Positions 4,078-54,330 of a stretch of DNA of 64,000 nt are shown in pieces (position 1 is the first letter of the stretch; every line of letters begins with the position of its first letter). The notes beneath the pieces are model-generated. The model saw only the letters and a list, made by a program, of their open reading frames with translations. It was not told where the DNA came from and did no database searches. Origin of the DNA: Podarcis cretensis (lineage: Eukaryota). Position numbers and translations under genes: made by a program. The stretch covers positions 73,718,001-73,782,000 of the forward strand of contig OX638153.1 of assembly GCA_951804945.1 (NCBI GenBank), written 5' to 3'.

Positions 4078-5299
4078 TGCTCCTATGTTTACAATTATGA
4101 TTATTAAACTCATTTTAGCTTCTAAAGACACATTTCTAACGACACAGTTGGCTCCAAGTATAACTGTGCTACAAGTACAAATGGTCTCTCATGCTAGAGA
4201 CATTTATTTTGGAAACAAATAATTCAAAAGTTATATTCACTAGAAACTCCATCCTCCCTCCCCCCCCCAAAAAAAAGAAAAAGAAATATTGAACACCAAG
4301 AAGAAATGACAGTTATCTTCATTATCCCCTTTCCAGAGAAATCTGGGTGGCTAGATTCCACTGCTGGAGTCAAGGGGGCTGAGAGGCTGAGCTAGCCAGA
4401 CCTTTGTTCTGCTTTAGCAAGCCATTAAAAATATATACTCAAGTTCTGAAGCACAATCCATAGAGAATTAAAGGAGGGGGAGCAGTATTGGTCAGAAATG
4501 AGAGGCATTTTTCTTCAAGAAATATATTGTTACTATTCAACAAAGTGGATTTTTAAAATAAAAAGAACCATTATGAATCCAACTTCTTTCTAGGCCAAGA
4601 AAACACACATTTTAGCAATGTGATTCATGCAAAAAGACCTTCACAAGCAGCTTAAGCAATTGGCACCCCGACAATTATGTAGACAAATGTGGGCACTATG
4701 GCAAAGGGTGAATTTGCAAAGCTGGTTTCTCAGAAAGCTTCCTGGAAACAGTGGGAACTGGTTGGATACATTGCCATTAAACCATAGCTTAAAATGAAGT
4801 ATGGTTTAATGTGACATGTAAAGTACCAACGTGTTTGAGCATGCATCTTCAGATACCTTGCCCTCCTAGTCAGCAGCAGACCATTTGAAAAGAATAGTGG
4901 TAGGAAAGATAGGCTGTTGTCCTTCCACAGAAATGAGGTGGAGAGAAAGGAGCAAGGGACAGCCTCTCTTAGAGTTCTGCAAATCAGAAAGAGCATCTCA
5001 CTACCACCAGTTCCAACAAACTTTACAGCTCTGGCTCTGAATGCCAAAATAAAAGTATATGCTCATTTTCAAATGCAATAATTTGAGGTTTAATGTTCAG
5101 TGGAAAATGATAAAATAACCATTGCAATTAATTAGAGGGTAAGATGGTTATTTTAGTCATATTAAGCTTCCATTAATATGCTGCAGCAGAACTTTGAATT
5201 AGTTAAATTACCGTTGTAAAATGGCATATTAAAAGTGAGACATGGTATTTGAAATAAAACAGGAATGTACACATAAAATCAAAGAGCCTAAAATTATTT

Positions 5300-6832
5300 A
5301 TCTTTGATTCAAACCTTTTTTTTTATTAAAGTATGAATGCCTTTACATTGCAGAATAGTTTACATACATTGGAAAGCAATAAGCATATTATTTTCAAGAG
5401 GTGCAAGTCCTCCTCAGTATGTTCCCATGATCAATCTACATGCTGTGACACTGATCGCACACGCAGACACACATACACACACTCACACAAACATACAAAG
5501 TTTACATATTCACACACAATGGAACAGACTGCTAGAGCTATCTGCTTTGATTAGCTTTCTTTTAAGGCTTCTGTAAGGTGCCCTCGTGCCCCTAACATTA
5601 CCACGATTTATGAACAAGACTATATGTATAAAGGAGCAGCATTATCTGCAACCTATTAATCAGCACTTGGCCTTTAAACATTATTATTTTTTAAAAAAAG
5701 AAACAAATAAACAACTTTCTCAAGTTATGAACCCTTTCATCTGTGACCAGAAAAGGGTTCTGGAAATATTAGTATGAGGTTTTGAATCACAACAAATAAT
5801 CTGCTTTCAAACCTGATCCCTTTCCACTGTAAGACACCCTGTGATCAAACTGGACCTAAAAAGTGATACCCAAGGAAGTGGGGTCAATATGGACATAGCT
5901 GGTGGCAAGACTGCTGTGGAACTAAGGGTCTCATACCATGCCAGAACTGAGGGAAAGCATATGAGGCAGCTTAACTATTAACTATCCAGGATCTTTATTT
6001 TGAAGCTATTTATATACTGCTTAATTACCGAAGTTTATCATTAATTACCAAATTACAATCTCTCACAATCTTCAGCAGTGGTTCGGTCATCCCAGGCATT
6101 CAAAAACAGTTCACAATCAGGTCCCCCAGCTCCCCAACCTGCCTTCTGGTATCCCTGCAAGTTTGTATTTAAAAACTATAGGGCTAAAGTGGAAAATGAG
6201 TGGCTGCAGGTACATTTAAAAGGTAAAATAAAATAAAATATAGCATATGATTATAGTGTGTAAATATAAGCATCTCTGAATATTCAAACTGTGAAATGTG
6301 AGTTTATGTAGATTTTCAGGCTGTTAATCTAAAAGACTGCAGGTAGCTACTTCAATCTGGAGACGGTCAACAGGATTAGCAGTAGGCCACCAAATTGTAT
6401 TTTCTTCTCTAGAAATGGATCCCATTTGCAACTGTATTAAGACTCTAGCAACAAATCCTAGAGGATTCTATCATTAGAATTGTTCACTTGTTTCAACAAG
6501 CAAAACTGAAATAATTTATTATCTTTATGAGACGAGCCTGAACTGTGAGGGCCAAAATGGGGCTGGAAGCTGTGGCTGAAGGTAAAATGGAAACACAAGT
6601 AAAAATGCTTTGTCACATTTTTAAACAGCAGCAGCAGATTTCAATGTGGTGCAGTTATTATAAAGATGCATATATTTTAGGGAATTTACTGAATTGCTTC
6701 TTTATTTTGAAAAGCTGATCAGTCACATGTTGGGTGCCCCATCACTCCCACATTGAACTGTTGCTTATTCATCTATATACTTCTATTCCCAGGGCCATTT
6801 TCTGCTTTTGCTTAACCAGTAATGAGTTCAAG
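5300..6832 (-). other. PID1: Probable PID1 3' UTR
   Basis: AT-rich stretch largely free of recognisable repeats between the stop codon and the candidate polyA signal. Confidence 0.5.
5322..5327 (-). promoter_or_regulatory. Probable PID1 polyadenylation signal (AATAAA on minus strand)
   Basis: TTTATT on the + strand about 1.5 kb past the PID1 stop, with a U/GU-rich tract downstream on the minus strand (CTCTTTGATTTTATGTGTACATTCCTGTTTTATTTC). Other TTTATT hexamers lie nearer the stop, so the choice is inferred. Confidence 0.5.
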
Positions 6833-7309
6833 TCAGCCATCGTCAGATTCCAGTTCTTGAGACATTTCTTCAGATGAGCTATTCCTGTGGATCCGTCCAT
6901 CACTCTTCATGCTATGGAAAGTCTTCTTAAAGGCCTCCATCATGGCATGAGCCAACTTCTTGGCCTCTAACTTGCTCTCGCACTCTACAGCATGGCAGTC
7001 CATTTGGTAGGACAAATCATCGTTGATCTCCCGATAAACCCAAGCAAAAATGTTTGGGCTGACATTGTGGTCGGCAGTGCAGTAAGCAATACGTGCAACT
7101 TGAAAGGTATCCATGTGGACAGTGGCCTCTCCTTTGAGGTCCAGATGATGAAGCCAAACTTGGAAGGGGCGGATTTCCAGAAGGGCATTAGCTGAGAAGA
7201 TGTCCTCTCTGGCAAGCGTGTGCTTCTTCCACAACTCAATGACTGGTTTCTCCGTGCAACCTGACAAAAACTGCATCCCTGTTGTGGAAACTTTACCCAA
7301 ATATGTAAC
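6833..7309 (-). CDS. PID1: Terminal coding exon of phosphotyrosine interaction domain containing 1 (PTB/PID domain; NYGGF4/PCLI1), 158 aa + stop
   Basis: The translation VTYLGKVSTTGMQFLSGCTEKPVIELWKKHTLARED...FAWVYREINDDLSYQMDCHAVECESKLEAKKLAHAMMEAF...ELESDDG* matches the vertebrate PID1 C-terminal portion as I recall it. A phase-0 acceptor TCTTTTCTTAG|GTT has its AG at 7311-7310. The ORF-track start at 7300 is an internal TTG (Leu), not a true start. Confidence 0.96.
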   Translation of the reverse strand, partial: VTYLGKVSTTGMQFLSGCTEKPVIELWKKHTLAREDIFSANALLEIRPFQVWLHHLDLKGEATVHMDTFQVARIAYCTADHNVSPNIFAWVYREINDDLSYQMDCHAVECESKLEAKKLAHAMMEAFKKTFHSMKSDGRIHRNSSSEEMSQELESDDG

Positions 7310-8487: not shown

Positions 8488-8861
8488 AGTCCAGTTCACA
8501 ACTCTAAAATATATAGTTTGGAACTAGTTAGTTACAAAGTCGACCTAAGCAGTTGCTTTAGGGTGCCAGAATCTTAGGGGAAACAGTGAAGTAGCAGCAG
8601 ATGCTGCATAGGACAGAGTTCACTGGGAGTTTTGAAAGCAAAGTGGAAAGGAAATAGAGCCATAGCCAGTGCTGGAGGAGCGAGGGTCAAAAAGGGTGAA
8701 AGAGAATGGTATAGATAGAACAGGAGCTGGGCACAGAGATACATGCATGGCCAAGAGTTCTGCTTCATCTCTGGAAGAGGTTTGTGCTGGTGGGAAGTGG
8801 TTGGCATCATTTACCTATCCAGTCTTGGCCAAATTTTGAAATCGTATTCTTTAACAATGAG

Positions 8862-9075
8862 TTACAAAGACTCTCCTCCTGCAAAAGAGGGGAGTGGTTG
8901 TGGGCGGGAGCCGGTCTCCGCCTCAAGCAGGGGGCGTTAGCCCCCTGCCTCCTACTCACCTGGCTGGCGCACCACGCCCACAGGCAGGCACCCAACCAGG
9001 TGCCTTCGAAGGGGTGTGGACGGCAGCTTCAATCGCTGCTGTGCCAGCCACGCAGCCTCACTCTTCATCGTCCCG
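8862..9075 (+). mobile_element. Solo 5'-terminal segment of a diverged Ngaro/DIRS-like element
   Basis: GC/CpG-rich island colinear with 39271-39470. AGACTCTCCTCCTGCAAAAGAGGGGAGTGGTTGTGGGCGGGAG aligns with AGCCTTTCCTCCTCCCAGGAGGGGAGGGGTTGTGATCGGGAG; GCAGGGGGCGTTAGCCCCCTGC aligns with GCAGGGAGCGCTCCGCCCCCTGC; GGCTGGCGCACCACGCCC aligns with GGCTGGCGCCACGCCC. Confidence 0.75.
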
Positions 9076-10124
9076 TCATGAATACGATTTACCAGGCTAT
9101 ATAGCTTTGAACCAAACATGACACTATAATTGTGCAAGTACAGTTAATGTGTTTTTTGGGGTTAAGTAAACAGCAGCCTTTGTGATGCTGGAGTAGTTTT
9201 AGGACCATTAGGGCAGAGGAGGGGGATTTTTATGTCCCTGAAAAAATCCCCTGAAAGGCAAACAACATTTTTGGAGAAGCAATTTTTGTCAGACCACAGC
9301 AGAAGCAGAAAGAGGCTACTATATTAAAAATGTGCACATTAACTGCATTCATGTAATTAGCATAATGTTTGGATTGGTCCATAGATGTACTGCTACTCTT
9401 TTTTATGGGGTCTACTTTTTCCACATCCCAAGCAACTAACTGCTGTAAGAGTTCACTGTAAATTTTCCTTTTCTATTTTTTGGCTTTAAAAAGTTCCTCA
9501 TTATAAAAATAGCTTTGAACAGCAATGTGTTTACATTGTGCAAAATCATTAAATACTAATGTAACATGCAAGGACTCAGCATGAAAACAACTCTCAGAGT
9601 TTCTGCAGGGGTTGTTCGTGTCACATTCAGAGACCCAAATAATTAAGAATAAGCTTACAAAATATTATTGGAAATCCATGCTGGTTCATTCCCTCTCTGC
9701 CAAAATGCAAGGAAATCACAAAATGAAAAGCCTTAAGAAGCCTTCTGTAACGTCACACCTATAAGCATCTTACATTTGGGGCAACACAGGGACCTGCAAC
9801 AGCTAAAATTGTTAACAAGGCTCTGGATTTTTAGTTCCTATCGCTACTCTAATCAATTAAGTTTCCATAGCCTTATGGTGTTACTAAGAGTTCAAGCAGT
9901 TCCCTTCCTGCCCCCTCTGAACAGTCTCACAGATCCTGAAGTTGTTGTAGGTTTCTGAGTCTATAGTTTAGAAAATAAGATAAATCTATAAACTGCCATG
10001 TTTGTAACCTTCAGCTTATTCTCTGCAGAGCCAATCCAATACATTTCATTCTTACACGAGTTACCCAAAAGAAGTTTGATACCACAAACAGCAGTATGCA
10101 TTGGAAGCCTTCTCTGAAATCCAT

Positions 10125-10379
10125 GAAGAAGAAGAAGAAGAGTTTGGATTTGATATCCCGCCTTTCACTCCCTTTAAGGAGTCTCAAAGCGGCTAACATT
10201 CTCCTTTCCCTTCCTCCCCCACAACAAACACTCTGTGAGGTGAGTGGGGCTGAGAGACTTCAAAGAAGTGTGACTAGCCCAAGGTCACCCAGCAGCTGCA
10301 TGTGGAGGAGCGGAGACGCGAACCTGGTTCCCCAGGATTACGAGACTACCGCTCTTAACCACTACACCACACTGGCTCT
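10125..10379 (-). mobile_element. Squam3-type (Ther1/MIR-derived) tRNA SINE with (CTT)n tail
   Basis: The minus strand begins AGAGCCAGTGTGGTGTAGTGGTTAAGAGCGG (A box) and ends CAAACT(CTT)n. It is near-identical to the copies at 31252 and 52168. Confidence 0.88.
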
Positions 10380-15413: not shown

Positions 15414-15775
15414 GGGACGCAGGTGGCGCTGTGGGTTAAAGCCTCAGCGCCTAGGGCTTGCCGATCGAAAGGTCGGCGGTTCGAATCCCTGCGGCGGGGT
15501 GCGCTCCCGCTGCTCGGTCCCAGCGCCTGCCAACCTAGCAGTTCGAAAGCACCTCCGGGTGCAAGTAGATAAATAGGGACCGCTTACCAGCGGGAAGGTA
15601 AACGGCGTTTCCGTGTGCGGCTCTGGCTCGCCAGAGCAGCGATGTCACGCTGGCCACGTGACCCGGAAGTGTCTCCGGACAGCGCTGGCCCCTGGCCTCT
15701 TAAGTGAGATGGGCGCACAACCCCAGAGTCTGTCAAGACTGGCCCGTATGGGCAGGGGTACCTTTACCTTTACCT
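15414..15775 (+). mobile_element. Full-length young Sauria SINE
   Basis: GGGACGC...TGGCGCTGTGGG (A box)...GGTTCGAATCC (B box)...(ACCTTT)n tail, with a perfect 13-bp TSD TATGTTGCACATA (15401-15413, 15776-15788). CpGs are largely intact. Confidence 0.95.
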
Positions 15776-16725: not shown

Positions 16726-16772
16726 TTTAGTGCCTGCTGGTTGTGGAATTCTTGCAAGGTGTTTTAAGAATA

Positions 16773-17011
16773 GGTAAAGGGACCCCTGACCATTAGGTCC
16801 AGTCATGGCCGACTCTGGGGTTGCGGCACTCATCTCGCTTTATTGGCCGAGGGAGCCGGCATACAGCTTCCGGGTCATGTGGCCAGCATGACTAAGCCGC
16901 TTCTGGCGAACCAGAGCAGCGCAGGGAAATGCCTTTTACCTTCACGCCAGAGTGGTACCTATTTATCTACTTGCACTTTGACGTGCTTTCGAACAGCTAG
17001 GTTGGCAGGAG
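16773..17011 (-). mobile_element. 5'-truncated Sauria SINE
   Basis: Homologous to 1981-2291 but lacking the tRNA head. Perfect 12-bp TSD GTTTTAAGAATA (16761-16772, 17012-17023). Confidence 0.92.
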
Positions 17012-31180: not shown

Positions 31181-31251
31181 CTTACATACATAACGTCCTA
31201 GAGCTCTGAATGAACACTTGAGATATTTCATTAATATTGTCTGGTTTTAGT

Positions 31252-31500
31252 GCCAGTGTGGTGTAGTGGTTAAGAGCGGTAGACTCGTAATCCGGAGAAC
31301 CAGGTTCGCGTCTCCGCTCCTCCACATTCAGCTGCTGGGTGACCTTGGGCCAGTCACACTTTTCTGAAGTCTCTCAGCCCCACTCACCTCACAGAGTGTT
31401 TGTTGTGGGGGAGGAAGGGAAAGGAGAATGTTAGCCGCTTTGAGACTCCTTCAGGTAGTGATAAAGCAGGATATCAAATGCAAACTCTTCTTCTTCTTCT
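31252..31500 (+). mobile_element. Squam3-type SINE with (CTT)n tail
   Basis: GCCAGTGTGGTGTAGTGGTTAAGAGCGGTAGACTCG...GGTTCGCGTCTCC...CAAACT(CTT)n. Confidence 0.88.
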
Positions 31501-38610: not shown

Positions 38611-39189
38611 CAACAACCCCCTAATAACAGGAAAGTATATTCTTTTTATCATATTTTAGACTAGAAAGCATCAAAACAGGAACAAACACAAATGCAGCAC
38701 TGTGCAAAAGCTTATCTAAACTATAAAAAAACAACCCTCGGTATTTTGGATAAAAGAACTAAAAGAAAGATTAACTGAATAATGCCAGACTCTGTCATAA
38801 AAATATGGAGCATGCTGAGAAGCTGTGTAATAAAGATTTTAATACCCACAGAGCAGAGTTCCAGCAGTGTAAGAGTTCAGCAGGTCTTGGATAATAACAT
38901 TCTACTGTTTTGTTCTTTGGGGGGGAAATCATAACAAGAAAAGAAACATGTGTGAAAAATGATCTATGGGACACTACTAATGCAAACTACTGAGTAGCTA
39001 GCCATTGGTTAGTGTTAACATTTTCAACTATGTTTTCAGTGACAAAGTTCCCCACTGCCCTCTGTTAGGCAGTGTGCCGGTCATGAAAAGCTAGTACAAT
39101 AATTATACTAGAAGTCTCCATTCATTGCTTCCCATCATTAATCACCTTGTTACTTGCAAAACCTTTTGCCATATTTTGATCATTCACAT

Positions 39190-39270
39190 AAACACTGAGG
39201 TTTTTAAAATCTATTTTCTTTTCCTTCTCTGTTTTTTTACACATAAACCACATGCATGGGAGGTTCAAAA
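39190..39270 (+). repeat. 81-bp direct repeat, left copy (flank of YR retroelement)
   Basis: Identical to 43450-43530 except for one base (39232 T vs 43492 G). Confidence 0.95.
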
Positions 39271-40605
39271 AGCCTTTCCTCCTCCCAGGAGGGGAGGGGT
39301 TGTGATCGGGAGATGATTCCCGCATCATGCAGGGAGCGCTCCGCCCCCTGCTTCAACTCCAGGGCTGGCGCCACGCCCCTCCCCAGTTGGGCACTCAATA
39401 GGGAAGCTCGACGGGGGAGTGGCTTGCTGCTCAAACGCAGCCGCGCCAGCAATCCCCACCATTGCACACACATTTTCTTCGAGTCAGGAGTCATCGCAGG
39501 GAAGAGCTCAGCCACAAGGTTTGGAGTCGGGGGTGTTTGTGTGTGTGGAGGCTGTCTGGTTCCTGGCTTGCCTTTTTAAATTTAGGAGGCTTGCGTGCAC
39601 TCATTGCTTTACTGCTTTTAAAAACCGAGGCACCCAAGTTTGCCTTGCTGTCTTGCTGTGTCCTCTTTTCTGTGTAAAAACCTACATTTAACCTTTTATT
39701 TTCCCCCACTCCTGGTGCTGGATTTGTTTGAGCGGTTTAAGTGTGAATTACCTTTCTTAAGCTGCAGCTTGTTCCTTTGCCCAGCACATGGTCTCTCCAC
39801 CCCCAGCGAGGTCTGAGTGTGAGTGCCGTCTTTCTATCTCCCTTGTCTCCTCACTTTCCTTCCCCGACCTCTGCCTTGGTGGCTGTGCGTTTTATTTTAA
39901 TTTTGGCCAGGGTGCCTGTATGTTTTTCCCCTCTATTGCCCTTGCCCGTCTGATTGCCTGGCTGGTCTGGGTGACTGAATGGGTTTGCCTTTCATTTTAA
40001 TTTGTTGGCCAGGGTGCTTGTACGTTTCTCCCCTCCATTGCCCTTGCCTGTTCCTCTCTAATTTTAAGTCGTGTGTGTGTGTGCTGGCAGCGTGTGTTTG
40101 TGCCTGCCGTTTGTTGATTTATTACTCTTTTAGCGTGGGTTTGATTTACCCTGCCATCCCTTCCATTGGTACCACTTAAATCGGGAGCCTGTGAAATTTT
40201 AAATGATGCCGGGGCTTAGAATAGACTGTGTGCTTAAACCTCACCCCTCTTTATCTAAGCCACACACACCCTCTTCGCTTGGCATTTGGGGGAAGAAATA
40301 AGGCAGGGCTTGGGGCGGACAATTCAGGGTTTCTGATCAGGGAACCATTCCTCAGCATTGCACATTTATACATTTAGAACCTTTGAAGGTGTACCTTTGC
40401 CTGGTTCTTGTCATTGGCTTCACTTGCCAGTACAGAGTCCTTAAAGAAAACCGCTTTTAAACAACAACAACAACAACAAGGTTGCGGCTTATAGAACCTT
40501 ACTGAAAAGTCCAGGCTAACCCACGGTTTATATTTCCACTTCATTTTGGCTCACTGTAAAGGACAGCTATTTTCCTTTTCTTCTAAACTTTTCCTTGCCC
40601 ATCCG

Positions 40606-41060
40606 CATTCTTCGATCGAATTCTTCAATCGGGCACTAAGACTTATCCGGAATTTTGGTCACAAGGCACTCTTGGCAAAATGTGACATAGAGTCAGCCTT
40701 CTGTCTATTGCCGGTTCATCCCAATGACTTTCATTTGCTGGGATTCAAATTTCAAGGGAAATATTACATTGTCAAGGCTATGCCGATGGGTTGTTCTGTA
40801 GCCGGCTCGGCCTTTGAGACATTTAGCACCTTTTGGGACTGGGCCTTGCGCTACAGAACCAACTCACCTGGGGTGACACTTTACCTTGGTGACTTTCTAC
40901 TCGTTGGGAAGCCCAATACCGGCGAATGTGCCTCCCCCTTCTGGAGGCCTTTTCAGCTTGGGAGTTCCCCTCACGGTAGATAAGACGGACCCTCAATGCA
41001 TCTTACTTACCTGGGTATAGAGCTTGACACAGCAGCTCAATCTGCCTGCCTGGCCAAAGG
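40606..41060 (+). pseudogene. Reverse transcriptase of the YR element, disabled
   Basis: Motifs ALLAKCDIESAF.LLPVHP, MPMGCS, YLGD (40882-40893, in place of YLDD), LGVPL and LTYLGIELDT lie in shifting frames. The N-terminal part is missing. Confidence 0.9.
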
Positions 41061-41106
41061 GGAAAATAGTTGCCCTTAACGAAACAATTCGTCAAACCCT
41101 TCCCAA

Positions 41107-41150
<44 letters not shown>
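41107..41150. repeat. (AAT)n microsatellite expanded inside the RT-RNase H linker
   Basis: About 14 AAT units between ...QTLPK and KKVALRQVQSLL. Confidence 0.9.
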
Positions 41151-41151
<1 letters not shown>

Positions 41152-41154
<3 letters not shown>

Positions 41155-41757
41155 GTCGCTCTTAGACAGGTCCAGTCCTTGCTAGATCATTTCAACTTCG
41201 CATGTAGAGTAGTTTCACCAGGCCGCCCATTTTGCTCCCGCTTAGCCAGGCTGTCAGCGGGCCTCAAGCATCCGCACCATAGAGTAAGACTTCCCAAGTC
41301 AGTCAAGGCGGATTTTGAGATGTGGATCAGATTTCTGGAACACTACAACGGAGTCTCCCTATGGCAGGAAATCCTTAATTTGGCCTCTGATTTCCAGGTC
41401 CACTCCAATGCGGCAGGGTCCCTGGGCTTTGGTCTGTTCTTTAAGGGACGTTGGTGCGCGCAACAATGGCCAGCAGAGTGGCAAGGGGAGGCCATCATGC
41501 GGGATCTCACTTTTCTGGAGTTTTTTTTTTTTCTCATATTTGTGGTGGTTCACATATGGACCGAGGAGTTCCGGAATCGCCGGGTGTGCTTCAGAACTGA
41601 TAACCAGGCTGTGGTTAACATACTGGCTAGCAGTTATTGCATTCTGAGAGGGGTCTCGCCTACTTCGATCATTTGTGCTCCGATGCCTTGCTTCCGGTCA
41701 TTAGCACCTTGGGCTCAGCTGCTGCCAGAATCCTTTCCGAACCTATGGAACCTTGGA
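41152..41757 (+). pseudogene. Tether + RNase H of the YR element, disabled
   Basis: QSLL.HFNFACRVV.PGRPF; HSNAAGSLGFG (first catalytic Asp changed to Asn, 41407-41409); LTFLE; FRTDNQAVV. The segment with the last Asp (N.IADALSR) appears deleted, and there is a T12 run at 41521-41532. Confidence 0.88.
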
Positions 41758-42405
41758 GACGCGAAGTGATCAAGGGAGTATTAGTGTCTGTTGCACCCTC
41801 TACCCTCAGGTCTTATAAGAAAGTATGGTGCAACTTCACAGGTTTCAGGTCCAAAGTATCGTCCCTTTCCCCTATCGTATGAAACTTAGGTCAATTTGCT
41901 GGTCCAAGTTTGAGGCCCGGCTGTTCTCTGCAAAATACGTTATAGCCTTCTTTGGTGCCTTGCGGGTTGGCGAGGTGGTAGCAGAAGCTACCTCAAGTGG
42001 AACAGCGCGCAGCCTCCTCCTGGAGGACGTGCAGGTCTCCAGTTCAGGCGTGGTGGTGTGAGTGCATCAGTCTAAGATGGACCAGGGCGGTAAGGGCACC
42101 GTAGTACAACTCACGGCCTCCGGTCAGAAGGGCCCATGCCCAGTAAAGGACACCAGGCGATACCTTTACCTCAGACCTCCCGGCCTTGGCCCGCTCTTCG
42201 TTCATGAGGATGGATCCCGACTGATGAGGCACCAATTCACCAGGGTACTTTGCAAAGCGATAGATGCCTGCGCTTTCCCTTCCAAAGACTATGCGGCACA
42301 TTCATTTAGGATTGGTGTGGCCACAACGGCCTCATGGGCCTTCCGGCAGACAGGATCAAGGAGATGGGCCGCTGGAAATCTAATGCCTACAAAAGTATTC
42401 TGAGA
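41745..42405 (+). pseudogene. Tyrosine recombinase of the YR element, disabled
   Basis: MEPWR..SVAPSTLRSY, then an internal deletion, AFFGALRVGE (Arg I), in-frame TGA 42059-42061, SKMDQ (Lys), CPV, HSFRIG (HxxR, 42299-42310), a frameshift, and MGRWKSNAY (Trp and catalytic Tyr, 42388-42390). Confidence 0.92.
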
Positions 42406-42413
42406 ACGCTCCG

Positions 42414-42443
42414 CTTACCTGTCTTTTCTTTCTTTATTCTTAG
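42414..42443 (+). promoter_or_regulatory. Predicted branch point, polypyrimidine tract and 3' splice acceptor for the SGNH ORF
   Basis: CTTAC (A at 42417), CTGTCTTTTCTTTCTTTATTCT, then TAG| with AG at 42442-42443. The SGNH frame has no ATG upstream of its catalytic Ser. Confidence 0.7.
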
Positions 42444-43018
42444 CTGTCTTCGGTAGTCCAGTGTGGATTTGCGGCCACAGTATCGTGCATTGGGCCCGCC
42501 TCCAGTCAGCAAGTTCCGGCTTCATGCCTAATCTGGGGCTACCATCGTGGGTGCGAGTTTCCTGGTTGTCGAGAAGGGGCATGCACTGGCAAGAACTCAT
42601 GCCACTGCTGAAGGCAAAAGCTGCGCTGTTGGGCCCCCCTAACATTCTAATCATTCAGCTGGGTGAGAGCGACCTGGCTAGCAGGAAGAGTGTGGACTTG
42701 CTGTGGAACATGAGAAAGGTCTTGGATGAGTTGGCTGCCTTATTTCCCAGAACAGCCCTGTTCTGGTCCTCTCTCTTGAAGAGAAAGGTTTGGCGCGGTG
42801 TGCATAACATTATGGCCTTTGAGAAATTCAGGAAACTCTTGAATCGCGCGGTAGCGCGCAAAGTGCGTTTTATGAATGGCCTAGTTATATCTCATGATGA
42901 TATCCAGATTGGCGACCAGACCCTATTCCGGGATGACGGTGTTCATCTTTCAGATTGCGGAAACAACATATGGCTGGCTAACATATCCAATAGTCTTAGG
43001 GATTGGTTGCAGCTGTGA
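42444..43018 (+). CDS. SGNH/GDSL hydrolase (esterase/lipase-like) ORF of the YR element, uninterrupted
   Basis: Block I WICGHSIV (Ser 42479-42481), block II RRGMHW, block III IIQLGESDL (usually GxND) and block V FRDDGVHLS (42935-42946). No stop or frameshift over about 190 codons. Confidence 0.85.
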
Positions 43019-43449
43019 GGGTATTGGCGGCAAGCCTTTTGGCTCAGGTGGCGGTTAGGCATTGGAATGTGTTGTTGGTGTTTTGGGTGGCAAGGTGTGG
43101 CCATCGCCTTCCCCGACAATTTTGGGTATTCCGCTAAAGGAATCCAGTGGTCGTGGATCCTGTCCGATGCCCGTGTGGCGGGGGGCCATGGCACGACCCT
43201 CGGTGACATCAGGAAGAGAGCCTATAGTTGGATTAGCATCAACAGGCTTCCCCTACTGGTGGTTAACCCCTCCTCAAACTCACCCCTCTACAAGTGGGTG
43301 GAGTCTAATGTTCCGTGGTCCAATGCCTAAGCCAATACCTTTTCACATGCTGTAATCAATAAAGTTGTGGCCTTTACCTTACCCATTAACCTTACATTCT
43401 GTGTCCATGTGTCTTTATTCCCCAAGCGGGGATCGGGTCCTCGAATCAC

Positions 43450-43530
43450 AAACACTGAGGTTTTTAAAATCTATTTTCTTTTCCTTCTCTGGTTTTTTAC
43501 ACATAAACCACATGCATGGGAGGTTCAAAA
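43450..43530 (+). repeat. 81-bp direct repeat, right copy
   Basis: 80/81 identical to 39190-39270, offset by 4260 bp. Confidence 0.95.
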
Positions 43531-52167: not shown

Positions 52168-52420
52168 AGAAGAAGAAGAGGAGTTTGGATTTGATATCCC
52201 GCCTTTCACTCCCCTTCAGGAGTCTCAAAGCGGCTAACATTCTCCTTTCCCTTCCTCCCCCACAACAAACACTCTGTGAGGTGAGTGGGGCTGAGAGACT
52301 TCAAAGAAGTGTGACTGGCCCAAGGTCACCCAGCAGCTGCAGGTGGAGGAGCGGGGACACAAACCCAGTTCCCCAGATTACGAGACTACCGCTCTTAACC
52401 ACTACACCACACTGGCTCTC
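52168..52420 (-). mobile_element. Squam3-type SINE with (CTT)n tail
   Basis: Near-identical to 10125-10379. Confidence 0.88.
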
Positions 52421-52647
52421 CAATTATATGATATATTATACCTTAACCTAGAACATAACTTCTATGTTGGCTCAACCATGAGCAGACTGTTACAATGGTT
52501 TCTTATGCAAGTGGTTTCTTATACAAGAAGAGATCCAAGATATACAATGCTAGCACTAGGCATATCCTGAGAAAAACTGCATTAATCTCATCAGCGATTA
52601 TCACTGCTGAAAATCCCACGATACATCCACAAGGCTTACATACAAGG

Positions 52648-54083: not shown

Positions 54084-54330
54084 GGAGAGCTTTTAAGCTT
54101 TTTGTCTTGCTTACTGGGCTCTGGAAGGCTCTCACAAGATCTCATGGGATCCTCCCAGAGTTAGAGCCTGGTAAGCAAGATTGAGAGCTTAAAAGTGCTT
54201 TCCACACCAGGAAAGAGCTTTTAAGCTCTGCGCCTTGCATGGGTTTAACTTCTGTGATATCAGCTGGTCAGCTGCCAAGCACATAAAGCTGCAGTCATGC
54301 AAGTTAAATGTGTGCGCGTTGCAAGGCGAC
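54084..54330. repeat. Chain of inverted repeats (foldback array)
   Basis: 54105-54122 / 54163-54180 (16/18), 54184-54203 / 54210-54229 (18/20) and 54231-54239 / 54320-54328 (9/9). Confidence 0.75.

Follow-up and report, generated by a model that had tools for sequence, protein, structure and literature searches.

A probable A-repeat remnant of a high-copy lacertid Ngaro-type retrotransposon family in a PID1 intron, and a candidate folded attachment site at the family's B|A junction

Ngaro elements are tyrosine-recombinase (YR) retroelements in which, as in Xenopus DIRS-53_XT and DrNgaro1, a reverse transcriptase–RNase H (RT-RH) and a YR are followed by an SGNH hydrolase, no methyltransferase is encoded, and the termini are split direct repeats in the order A1-ORFs-B1-A2-B2. 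The available excerpt of a preprint on amphibian Ngaro elements (bioRxiv 10.1101/2021.08.05.455354) gives lengths of 236 bp for A and 152 bp for B and describes no structure of A or of the repeat junction. Isolated terminal-repeat units from split-direct-repeat YR elements are known as the solo AB repeats of Cafeteria Ngaro and as SIRE of VIPER, and in excerpts of both sources they comprise A and B together (PMC8547959, PMC6681497). DIRS-1 of Dictyostelium is likewise a YR retroelement, with a trinucleotide core common to junction and target, but it differs from Ngaro in its inverted terminal repeats, internal complementary region (ICR) and membership of the methyltransferase group; its cDNA is single-stranded and mostly linear, a double-stranded circle is still assumed to be integrated, and the recombinase specificity of DIRS-order elements was experimentally untested as of 2020 (PMC7192593, in the part available). 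Integron attC sites (PMC5027507) and the CTXphi attP(+) site (PMC3442271), which are bacterial and are recombined by IntI or XerCD, are used as folded single strands; in the extracts available, both are imperfect hairpins with two paired boxes, an unpaired central spacer, a terminal part that varies and, at the crossover, 3 nt of microhomology. The literature that we searched on Ngaro junctions, on stem-loops and on DIRS elements together with attC yielded no eukaryotic YR site used as a folded single strand, and the word "hairpin" does not occur in PMC4157794, PMC13465315 or PMC3783388.

Here we describe an isolated CpG-rich island within a 64-kb window of DNA from Podarcis cretensis (contig OX638153.1; all positions are those of the window) that we regard, with a probability of about 0.8, as an A-repeat remnant of a high-copy lacertid Ngaro-type YR retrotransposon family lying antisense in a PID1 intron. 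Homology, length and a sharp 5' boundary identify the island as an A-repeat-like 5' end of the family, without B or internal sequence, at 8865..9080 on the plus strand; its 216 bases are close to the 236 bp of A in Xenopus Ngaro. The first-pass annotation had correctly recognized the island and its CpG richness (12 CpG and 64% GC, against 41% GC for the window) and had placed it at 8862..9075, edges that are better set at 8865/8866 and about 9080. The last coding exon of PID1 (6832..7309; Pfam PID_2, E 6.8e-18) lies on the minus strand, and its acceptor AG (7311-7310) is about 1.55 kb from the island, in agreement with the proximity noted earlier; the island is thus antisense within the intron. 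The window also contains three copies of a CpG-rich SINE (1987-2285, 15445-15769 and 16772-17011), which may be the Sauria SINE, and a young SINE with a tRNA-like head and an (AGA)n end in copies that are 90-97% identical (10127-10379, 31234-31500 and 52168-52434).

The island is 75% identical (138 of 185 aligned columns) to the A repeat of a decayed element elsewhere in the window, compared over 39269-39460. Its local alignment score against 39271-39480 is 82 (dinucleotide-shuffled pairs: mean 18.7, maximum 34), a score reached by 0 of 2000 shuffled pairs under each of two scorings, and nhmmer gives E 4.9e-15; the homology to 39271-39470 that had been noticed by inspection therefore withstands shuffled controls. 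A homology search found no third copy of A within the window. The island contains no B-end sequence and has no significant match to 43000-43453, and its tail (9050-9092) has no significant match to the window element (202 of 1000 shuffles reach the score) and resembles neither that element's continuation past A nor B. In contrast to the Cafeteria solo repeats and SIRE, the island therefore consists of A only and does not classify as a solo AB repeat. Perfect 11-bp inverted-repeat arms flank it on the plus strand at 8839..8849 and 9080..9090, a length reached by 4 of 3000 control window pairs; this repeat, which may be a host palindrome or a repair scar, suggests a clean insertion, and a simple deletion would not account for that. 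Orthologous contigs have a G at 9091 that slightly lengthens the inverted-repeat likeness.

The identity of the family is best read from the window element, which domain and homology searches delimit at 39269..43453 on the plus strand. This decayed Ngaro-type element retains an A repeat (39269..39480, homologous to the island by alignment and fold), a body and a B end (43426..43453), and lacks gag, the N-terminus of the RT and A2-B2. Its body contains, all on the plus strand, a broken RT-RH remnant (40624..41766; Pfam RVT_1 and tblastn to the homologue P0010) with no methyltransferase after RNase H, a broken YR remnant assigned to a Cre-like family through its homologues (41679..42405), and an SGNH/GDSL hydrolase ORF (42404..43018; Pfam and protein homology) that shares 96% identity with a Podarcis muralis protein. 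The Lipase_GDSL_2 match is below the Pfam curated cut-off, with E 0.011 in the window ORF and 1.4e-6 in the homologue P0003. RT-RH relatives occur in Podarcis, Zootoca, Eublepharis, Hemicordylus and Rhineura; the 14 aligned RT-RH proteins stop just past RNase H, and none of the six scanned has a methyltransferase Pfam match. The broken YR itself has no Pfam match and, in a phmmer search against the PDB, returned only noise; six of the nine homologues scanned match Phage_integrase, and a profile of the homologues ranks Cre first (E 2e-14). Cre is also first for the predicted YR fold (Z 21.4, rmsd 5.5, 279 aligned residues), ahead of IntI 2a3v (Z 15.9, rmsd 4.9, 259 aligned). We assign the element to Ngaro given this order of RT, RNase H, YR (recognized through its homologues) and a vertebrate-type SGNH hydrolase ORF without a methyltransferase. 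The alternative of a DIRS-like element, which would have long inverted terminal repeats and an ICR, was rejected, the longest exact inverted match between the element ends being 9 bp.

The window element differs from reference Ngaro elements in its missing gag (residues 1-494 of P0010 are unmatched, and close homologues carry a long N-terminal region), in the absence of A2-B2 from a homology search of the window, and in an 84-bp duplication of flanking sequence (39187..39270 and 43447..43530, plus strand, 98% identical, found by duplicate detection). Both of its ends meet host DNA at A runs. The missing A2-B2, the flank duplication and the A-run cores together may reflect an internal B1|A2 crossover into a second target 84 bp away; recombination between B1 and B2 with a separate duplication also fits. 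A pyrimidine-rich stretch (39480-40620) with a 47-nt direct repeat (39903-39949 and 40005-40051) occupies the place where gag belongs, and an (AAT)n microsatellite (41107-41150) has expanded inside the RT-RNase H frame. Podarcis NCBI gene models P0001, P0002, P0006, P0007 and P0031 splice YR fragments to the SGNH ORF, and many Podarcis "uncharacterized LOC" genes are the Ngaro transposon.

Contigs from sequencing runs place the island within an abundant family. In 4 of 22 listed runs compared with 8500-9500 at 80% likeness, 608, 236 and 521 contigs match in three DNA-like runs and 10 in the fourth; an RNA origin of run X15 is a guess only. Summed depth at 8874-8907 is 216,307, 4,431 and 189,363, against 70, 4.6 and 103 in the flank, and the resulting ratios of about 3100x, 970x and 1800x are not a copy number; on a plain reading the count is hundreds to thousands. 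Unrelated 255-nt 5' flanks are stacked before 8865/8866 in at least 29 contigs of run X1 (11 + 18) and at least 14 of run X11 (agreement 0.42-0.43), which shows that insertions of the family are spread over many unrelated sites and begin at a sharp 5' boundary; together with the match to a YR element, this bears out the earlier view of the island as the terminal A segment of a retroelement. These stacked ends, together with the A runs at which the window element meets host DNA on either side, point to CAAA at 8865..8868 (plus strand) as the crossover core at the host|A junction, and YR insertion at such an A-rich core is consistent with the trinucleotide model (PMC7192593, as excerpted).

In one X15 contig, sequence like the window element's 3' end directly precedes the start of A, forming in this relative the B-to-A junction that characterizes Ngaro elements, and another X15 contig, island-like at its start, runs at least 255 nt beyond 9049. 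Several contigs lose the match at 9071-9078, and the 24 of 172 loose-end entries listed include no stack of unrelated 3' flanks. The right junction of the island is bridged in X1 and X6, and the insertion is therefore common to two organisms; left-junction contigs narrowly miss the 31 nt required for bridging. At 9078-9079 the orthologous contigs have GC, and the match to the family thereby extends to 9080. In the four runs we found neither an empty site nor a joint skipping the island, contigs being unable to show absence. One X6 contig has a joint at 8900-8993 that skips 92 nt of A, removing hairpins 2 and 3, and may represent a family member with an internal deletion. As no complete A1-body-B1-A2-B2 copy is present among the contigs, the length of A is inferred. 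A degenerate A-repeat pattern gave 0 matches in metagenome contigs and 18 in viral contigs, with 0 confirmed relatives. The literature searched on Ngaro and DIRS elements in lizards does not describe the lacertid family; the founding papers (Goodwin, Poulter, Butler), Repbase, Dfam and supplements were outside the scope of that search and may already note the family or an inverted repeat at its junction.

The A repeat is structured beyond chance, as had been claimed: folded as RNA, the island has a z-score of -6.76 and the A of the window element -5.15, with none of 200 shuffles as stable in either case, and the island's reverse strand folds less strongly (-3.56 as RNA, -2.81 as DNA). In a rough z scan the best island window reaches -7.3, the lowest of 120 random 150-nt windows -5.1, and windows of the element's A -3.4 and -3.1. 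The same scan gives -4.8 for an RT coding window (40770-40920). Single-sequence folds give both copies a five-hairpin arrangement. In island coordinates on the plus strand, it comprises hairpin 1 (8870..8895, 9 bp), hairpin 2 (8903-8922, formed in free A), hairpin 3 (8927..8948, 9 bp, with a loop that varies among the contigs of the family) and a multibranch domain (8962..9049, from folds, RNAalifold and pair comparison) with a closing helix, a long arm (8972-9019) and hairpin 5 (9022-9040). RNAalifold on the two copies gives a 5' half that differs from the single-sequence folds, two sequences being too few for this method, and Rfam returns 0 matches at gathering score across the whole window.

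To compare the copies, each was folded singly and its pairs were read in the other copy through a plain sequence alignment. None of 400 neutral mutants in any of four nulls matched the energy of the other copy; fold stability is thus kept beyond neutral divergence, and the statement that stems persist despite sequence change is upheld. Pairs kept in the other copy amount to 76% in one direction (null 69-70%; reached by 32 and 48 of 400 nulls) and 82% in the opposite one (null 68-69%; 0 and 1 of 400), and the two independent structures have 21 of 64 pairs in common (reached by 16-29 of 400 nulls). The first-pass annotation had attributed this persistence to compensatory changes between the copies, whose counts are at chance level: 3 of 64 and 2 of 64 pairs, with null means of 1.5-2.3 and 77-279 of 400 nulls reaching them. 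Its three examples fare accordingly. The stem GGCGGGAG/CTCCGCC does correspond to CGGGAG/TTCCCG, with an identical 5' arm and changes on one side only, and is not compensatory; pair 8933:8942 is broken between GCAGGGGGC and GCAGGGAGC; and the supposedly flipped stem in hairpin 5 is not flipped and contains one true A-T to T-A swap, at 9025:9037, a pair that is mismatched in one X6 loose end. A further compensatory pair, which had escaped that annotation, is 8904:8922 (G-C in the island, T-A in the element, and in one X15 contig A-T); X1 contains 8904A far more often than 8922T and so shows no linkage of the two. Of 23 variant sites, 9 fall in pairs, where 66% would be expected to do so (P 0.008). 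The set comprises 2 deletions and, from the best 40 of 87 substitution entries by support, 21 substitutions at positions up to 9054, leaving aside insertions and site 9067. Six of the nine keep or improve their pair, and one, at 9019, breaks a helix-end pair. With few variants paired and most of those still pairing, the structure is conserved mainly through kept stems and varying loops.

A second fold becomes available to the 5' part of A when B precedes it, and its modeled form resembles a YR attachment site. We joined the final 31 nt of the element to the start of its A and folded the product: 43426-43450 pairs with 39301-39323 (the +33..+58 region of A) in a stem nested around hairpin 1. 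In the island, the equivalent right arm would be 8898..8924 on the plus strand, with hairpin 1 as the inner helix. Among body windows, itself included, the pairing gain of the window B end ranks 2 of 785 with RNA parameters and 18 of 785 with DNA parameters, and 1 (RNA) and 16 (DNA) of 300 shuffles reach it. The B end of the X15 contig, a junction known from that one contig, forms with the island's A the arms CCACAA/TTGTGG, a 2x2 loop and then the 9-bp hairpin 1; its gain is reached by 2 of 380 body windows and by 2 (RNA) and 4 (DNA) of 300 shuffles, and is -15.1 kcal/mol compared with -1.4 for the island's real host flank. The arms in the element are ATCACAA/TTGTGAT, with one cross-repeat compensatory pair between the lineages (C-G to T-A). 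The stem thus holds for two lizard lineages in in-silico folds of two B ends, and in both the left arm has the AAA crossover core at its inner end, by a small internal loop. As in attC, the predicted fold has two paired boxes, an unpaired spacer and adjacent crossover microhomology; unlike attC and CTXphi attP(+) in the extracts cited (PMC5027507, PMC3442271), it belongs with a Cre-like YR and has no RYYYAAC box. The arms end in CAA/TTG and not in the RYYYAAC/GTTRRRY of attC, and we do not file the site as attC. That the B|A junction is a folded single-strand attachment site of the attC/CTX kind is a tentative reading of these models, and we would not yet favor it at even odds. The recombinase loading proposed earlier for the island thereby gains specific in-silico support, with the correction that the B|A junction is the candidate and only half of it is present in the island.

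Of 21 distant, Ngaro-like RT-RH loci that have no methyltransferase-like extension (29-50% identity), L009 (hairpin at 5037-5080), L011 (3274-3317) and L012 (5554-5595) have a common nested hairpin between YR and gag, with L010 (706-749) carrying one in its non-coding spacer as well. It is the best-conserved 42-column non-coding window of L009, L011 and L012 (34 invariant columns, the next window having 27, and 15% overall). In L006 (51-53% RT identity; 424-466), a 19-nt exact core is common with L011 and the outer arms are different yet complementary; the spacer is 27 nt, against 20 nt in the L009 type. In L006, L009, L011 and L012 alike, the left arm has AA at its inner end, and the arm of the L009 type contains TATAAA. 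These hairpins are similar in form to the lizard junction stem and are candidate junctions. A nested-hairpin motif scan matched 3 of the 21 loci (null mean 0.4, maximum 3) and missed L006 and L012; as it was designed after the lizard case and two of the matched loci are one family, we do not count it as support. The scan also matched a 29-nt inverted repeat in the window (54175-54238; 79% complementary, arms 6 nt apart). Hairpins in L007, L008 and L021, chosen after the fact, are not counted, and a pair count on the distant-hairpin alignment was set aside given a misaligned L006 right arm. A non-coding z-scan of six of the 21 loci gave minima here and there, down to -4.8, and no GC-rich module of five hairpins.

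We propose the following origin for the island. Its hairpins would have been selected in active master elements and not at the island locus. A YR crossover probably placed the element at an A-rich core of 3-4 nt common to element and target, and all sequence 3' of about base 216 would then have been lost, either through a later deletion or in an incomplete integration, with the crossover finished on the A side alone and the other end closed by repair. Less certainly, half of the attachment site may consist of the first 60 nt of A: with B upstream, these would fold into a nested stem made up of an outer helix, a 2x2 internal loop at the AAA core and hairpin 1; without B, as in the island, hairpin 2 would form and the site would be dead, making insertion one-way. 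For the 3' domain (8927-9049) the most likely place of action is the element RNA, where it may serve in packaging, template switching or transcription control. As for integration itself, we speculate, at rather less than even odds, that Ngaro integrates from folded single-stranded cDNA, that the Cre-like YR cleaves the B|A nested hairpin at its A-rich triplet with one strand exchanged with a chromosomal AAA, that the first two hairpins of A are a switch requiring upstream B, and that internal B1|A2 crossovers leave as by-products both A-only remnants and the elements that combine a flank duplication with a missing A2-B2.

This mechanism must be weighed against an account to which we give an even chance, in which the complementarity of B end and A is an ordinary imperfect inverted repeat acting in double-stranded circular DNA as core or accessory YR arms, the hairpins being a by-product or functional in RNA only; it concerns the mechanism and not the identity of the island. 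In its favor are a Cre-like rather than integron-like YR and the weaker DNA-parameter gain of the window element (16 of 300 shuffles), and the TATAAA in the conserved arm of L009-L012 could be a promoter. It also agrees with the published model of a double-stranded circle with a trinucleotide core (PMC7192593, in part). Against it, 30 nt lie between the arms in the lizard and 20 or 27 nt in those of the distant candidates, every one of these spacers folds as a hairpin, and the crossover core is found at the left arm's inner end. Simple duplex YR sites have a fixed spacer of 6-8 bp. Variable, self-pairing spacers are a misfit to that length and DIRS-1 cDNA is single-stranded and mostly linear, and both speak for use of a folded single strand, against which count the Cre-like enzyme, the restriction to two lizard B ends and the weaker DNA-parameter signal.

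The island itself could instead belong to an A-only non-autonomous family, a unit of about 216 bp mobilized in trans by Ngaro proteins as SIRE is related to VIPER; this corresponds to the movement as a solo unit proposed in the first-pass annotation, and we consider it improbable. The very high depth on A, the precise 5' end, the contigs that stop matching at 9071-9078, the SIRE precedent (PMC6681497, in excerpt) and, if insertion was clean, an 11-bp inverted repeat that would be the intact host site are all compatible with such a family; the island-like X15 contig, however, continues well past 9049, the listed loose ends show no stack of unrelated 3' flanks, known solos consist of A plus B (PMC8547959, PMC6681497, as excerpted), and the junction site cannot form without B, as the energy with the host flank indicates. 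Exaptation of the island as an intronic regulatory element or RNA structure of PID1 is very unlikely: the insertion is common to at least two organisms, the 12 CpG are kept and the island fold is stronger than that of the element's A, but compared with orthologous contigs its CpG at 9078-9079 has decayed, private substitutions set it apart from the family majority, and it is one copy among very many, lying antisense to PID1 at 1.55 kb from the acceptor. Chance similarity of two stretches that are both GC-rich with runs of G and C has a negligible probability, being refuted by the shuffle and nhmmer results, with hundreds of related contigs also opposed to it. We therefore retain the reading of the island as an A-repeat remnant of the Ngaro family and see it as probably without present function.

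Ngaro elements and solo repeats are already known, and the island is an ordinary, inert remnant that in itself matters little; what it indicates is an abundant Ngaro family in lacertid genomes. A candidate site of 60-90 nt with a mapped crossover makes the single-strand question testable, and, if the folded-junction proposal is true, structure-specific YR recombination would extend from integrons and filamentous phages to animal retroelements.
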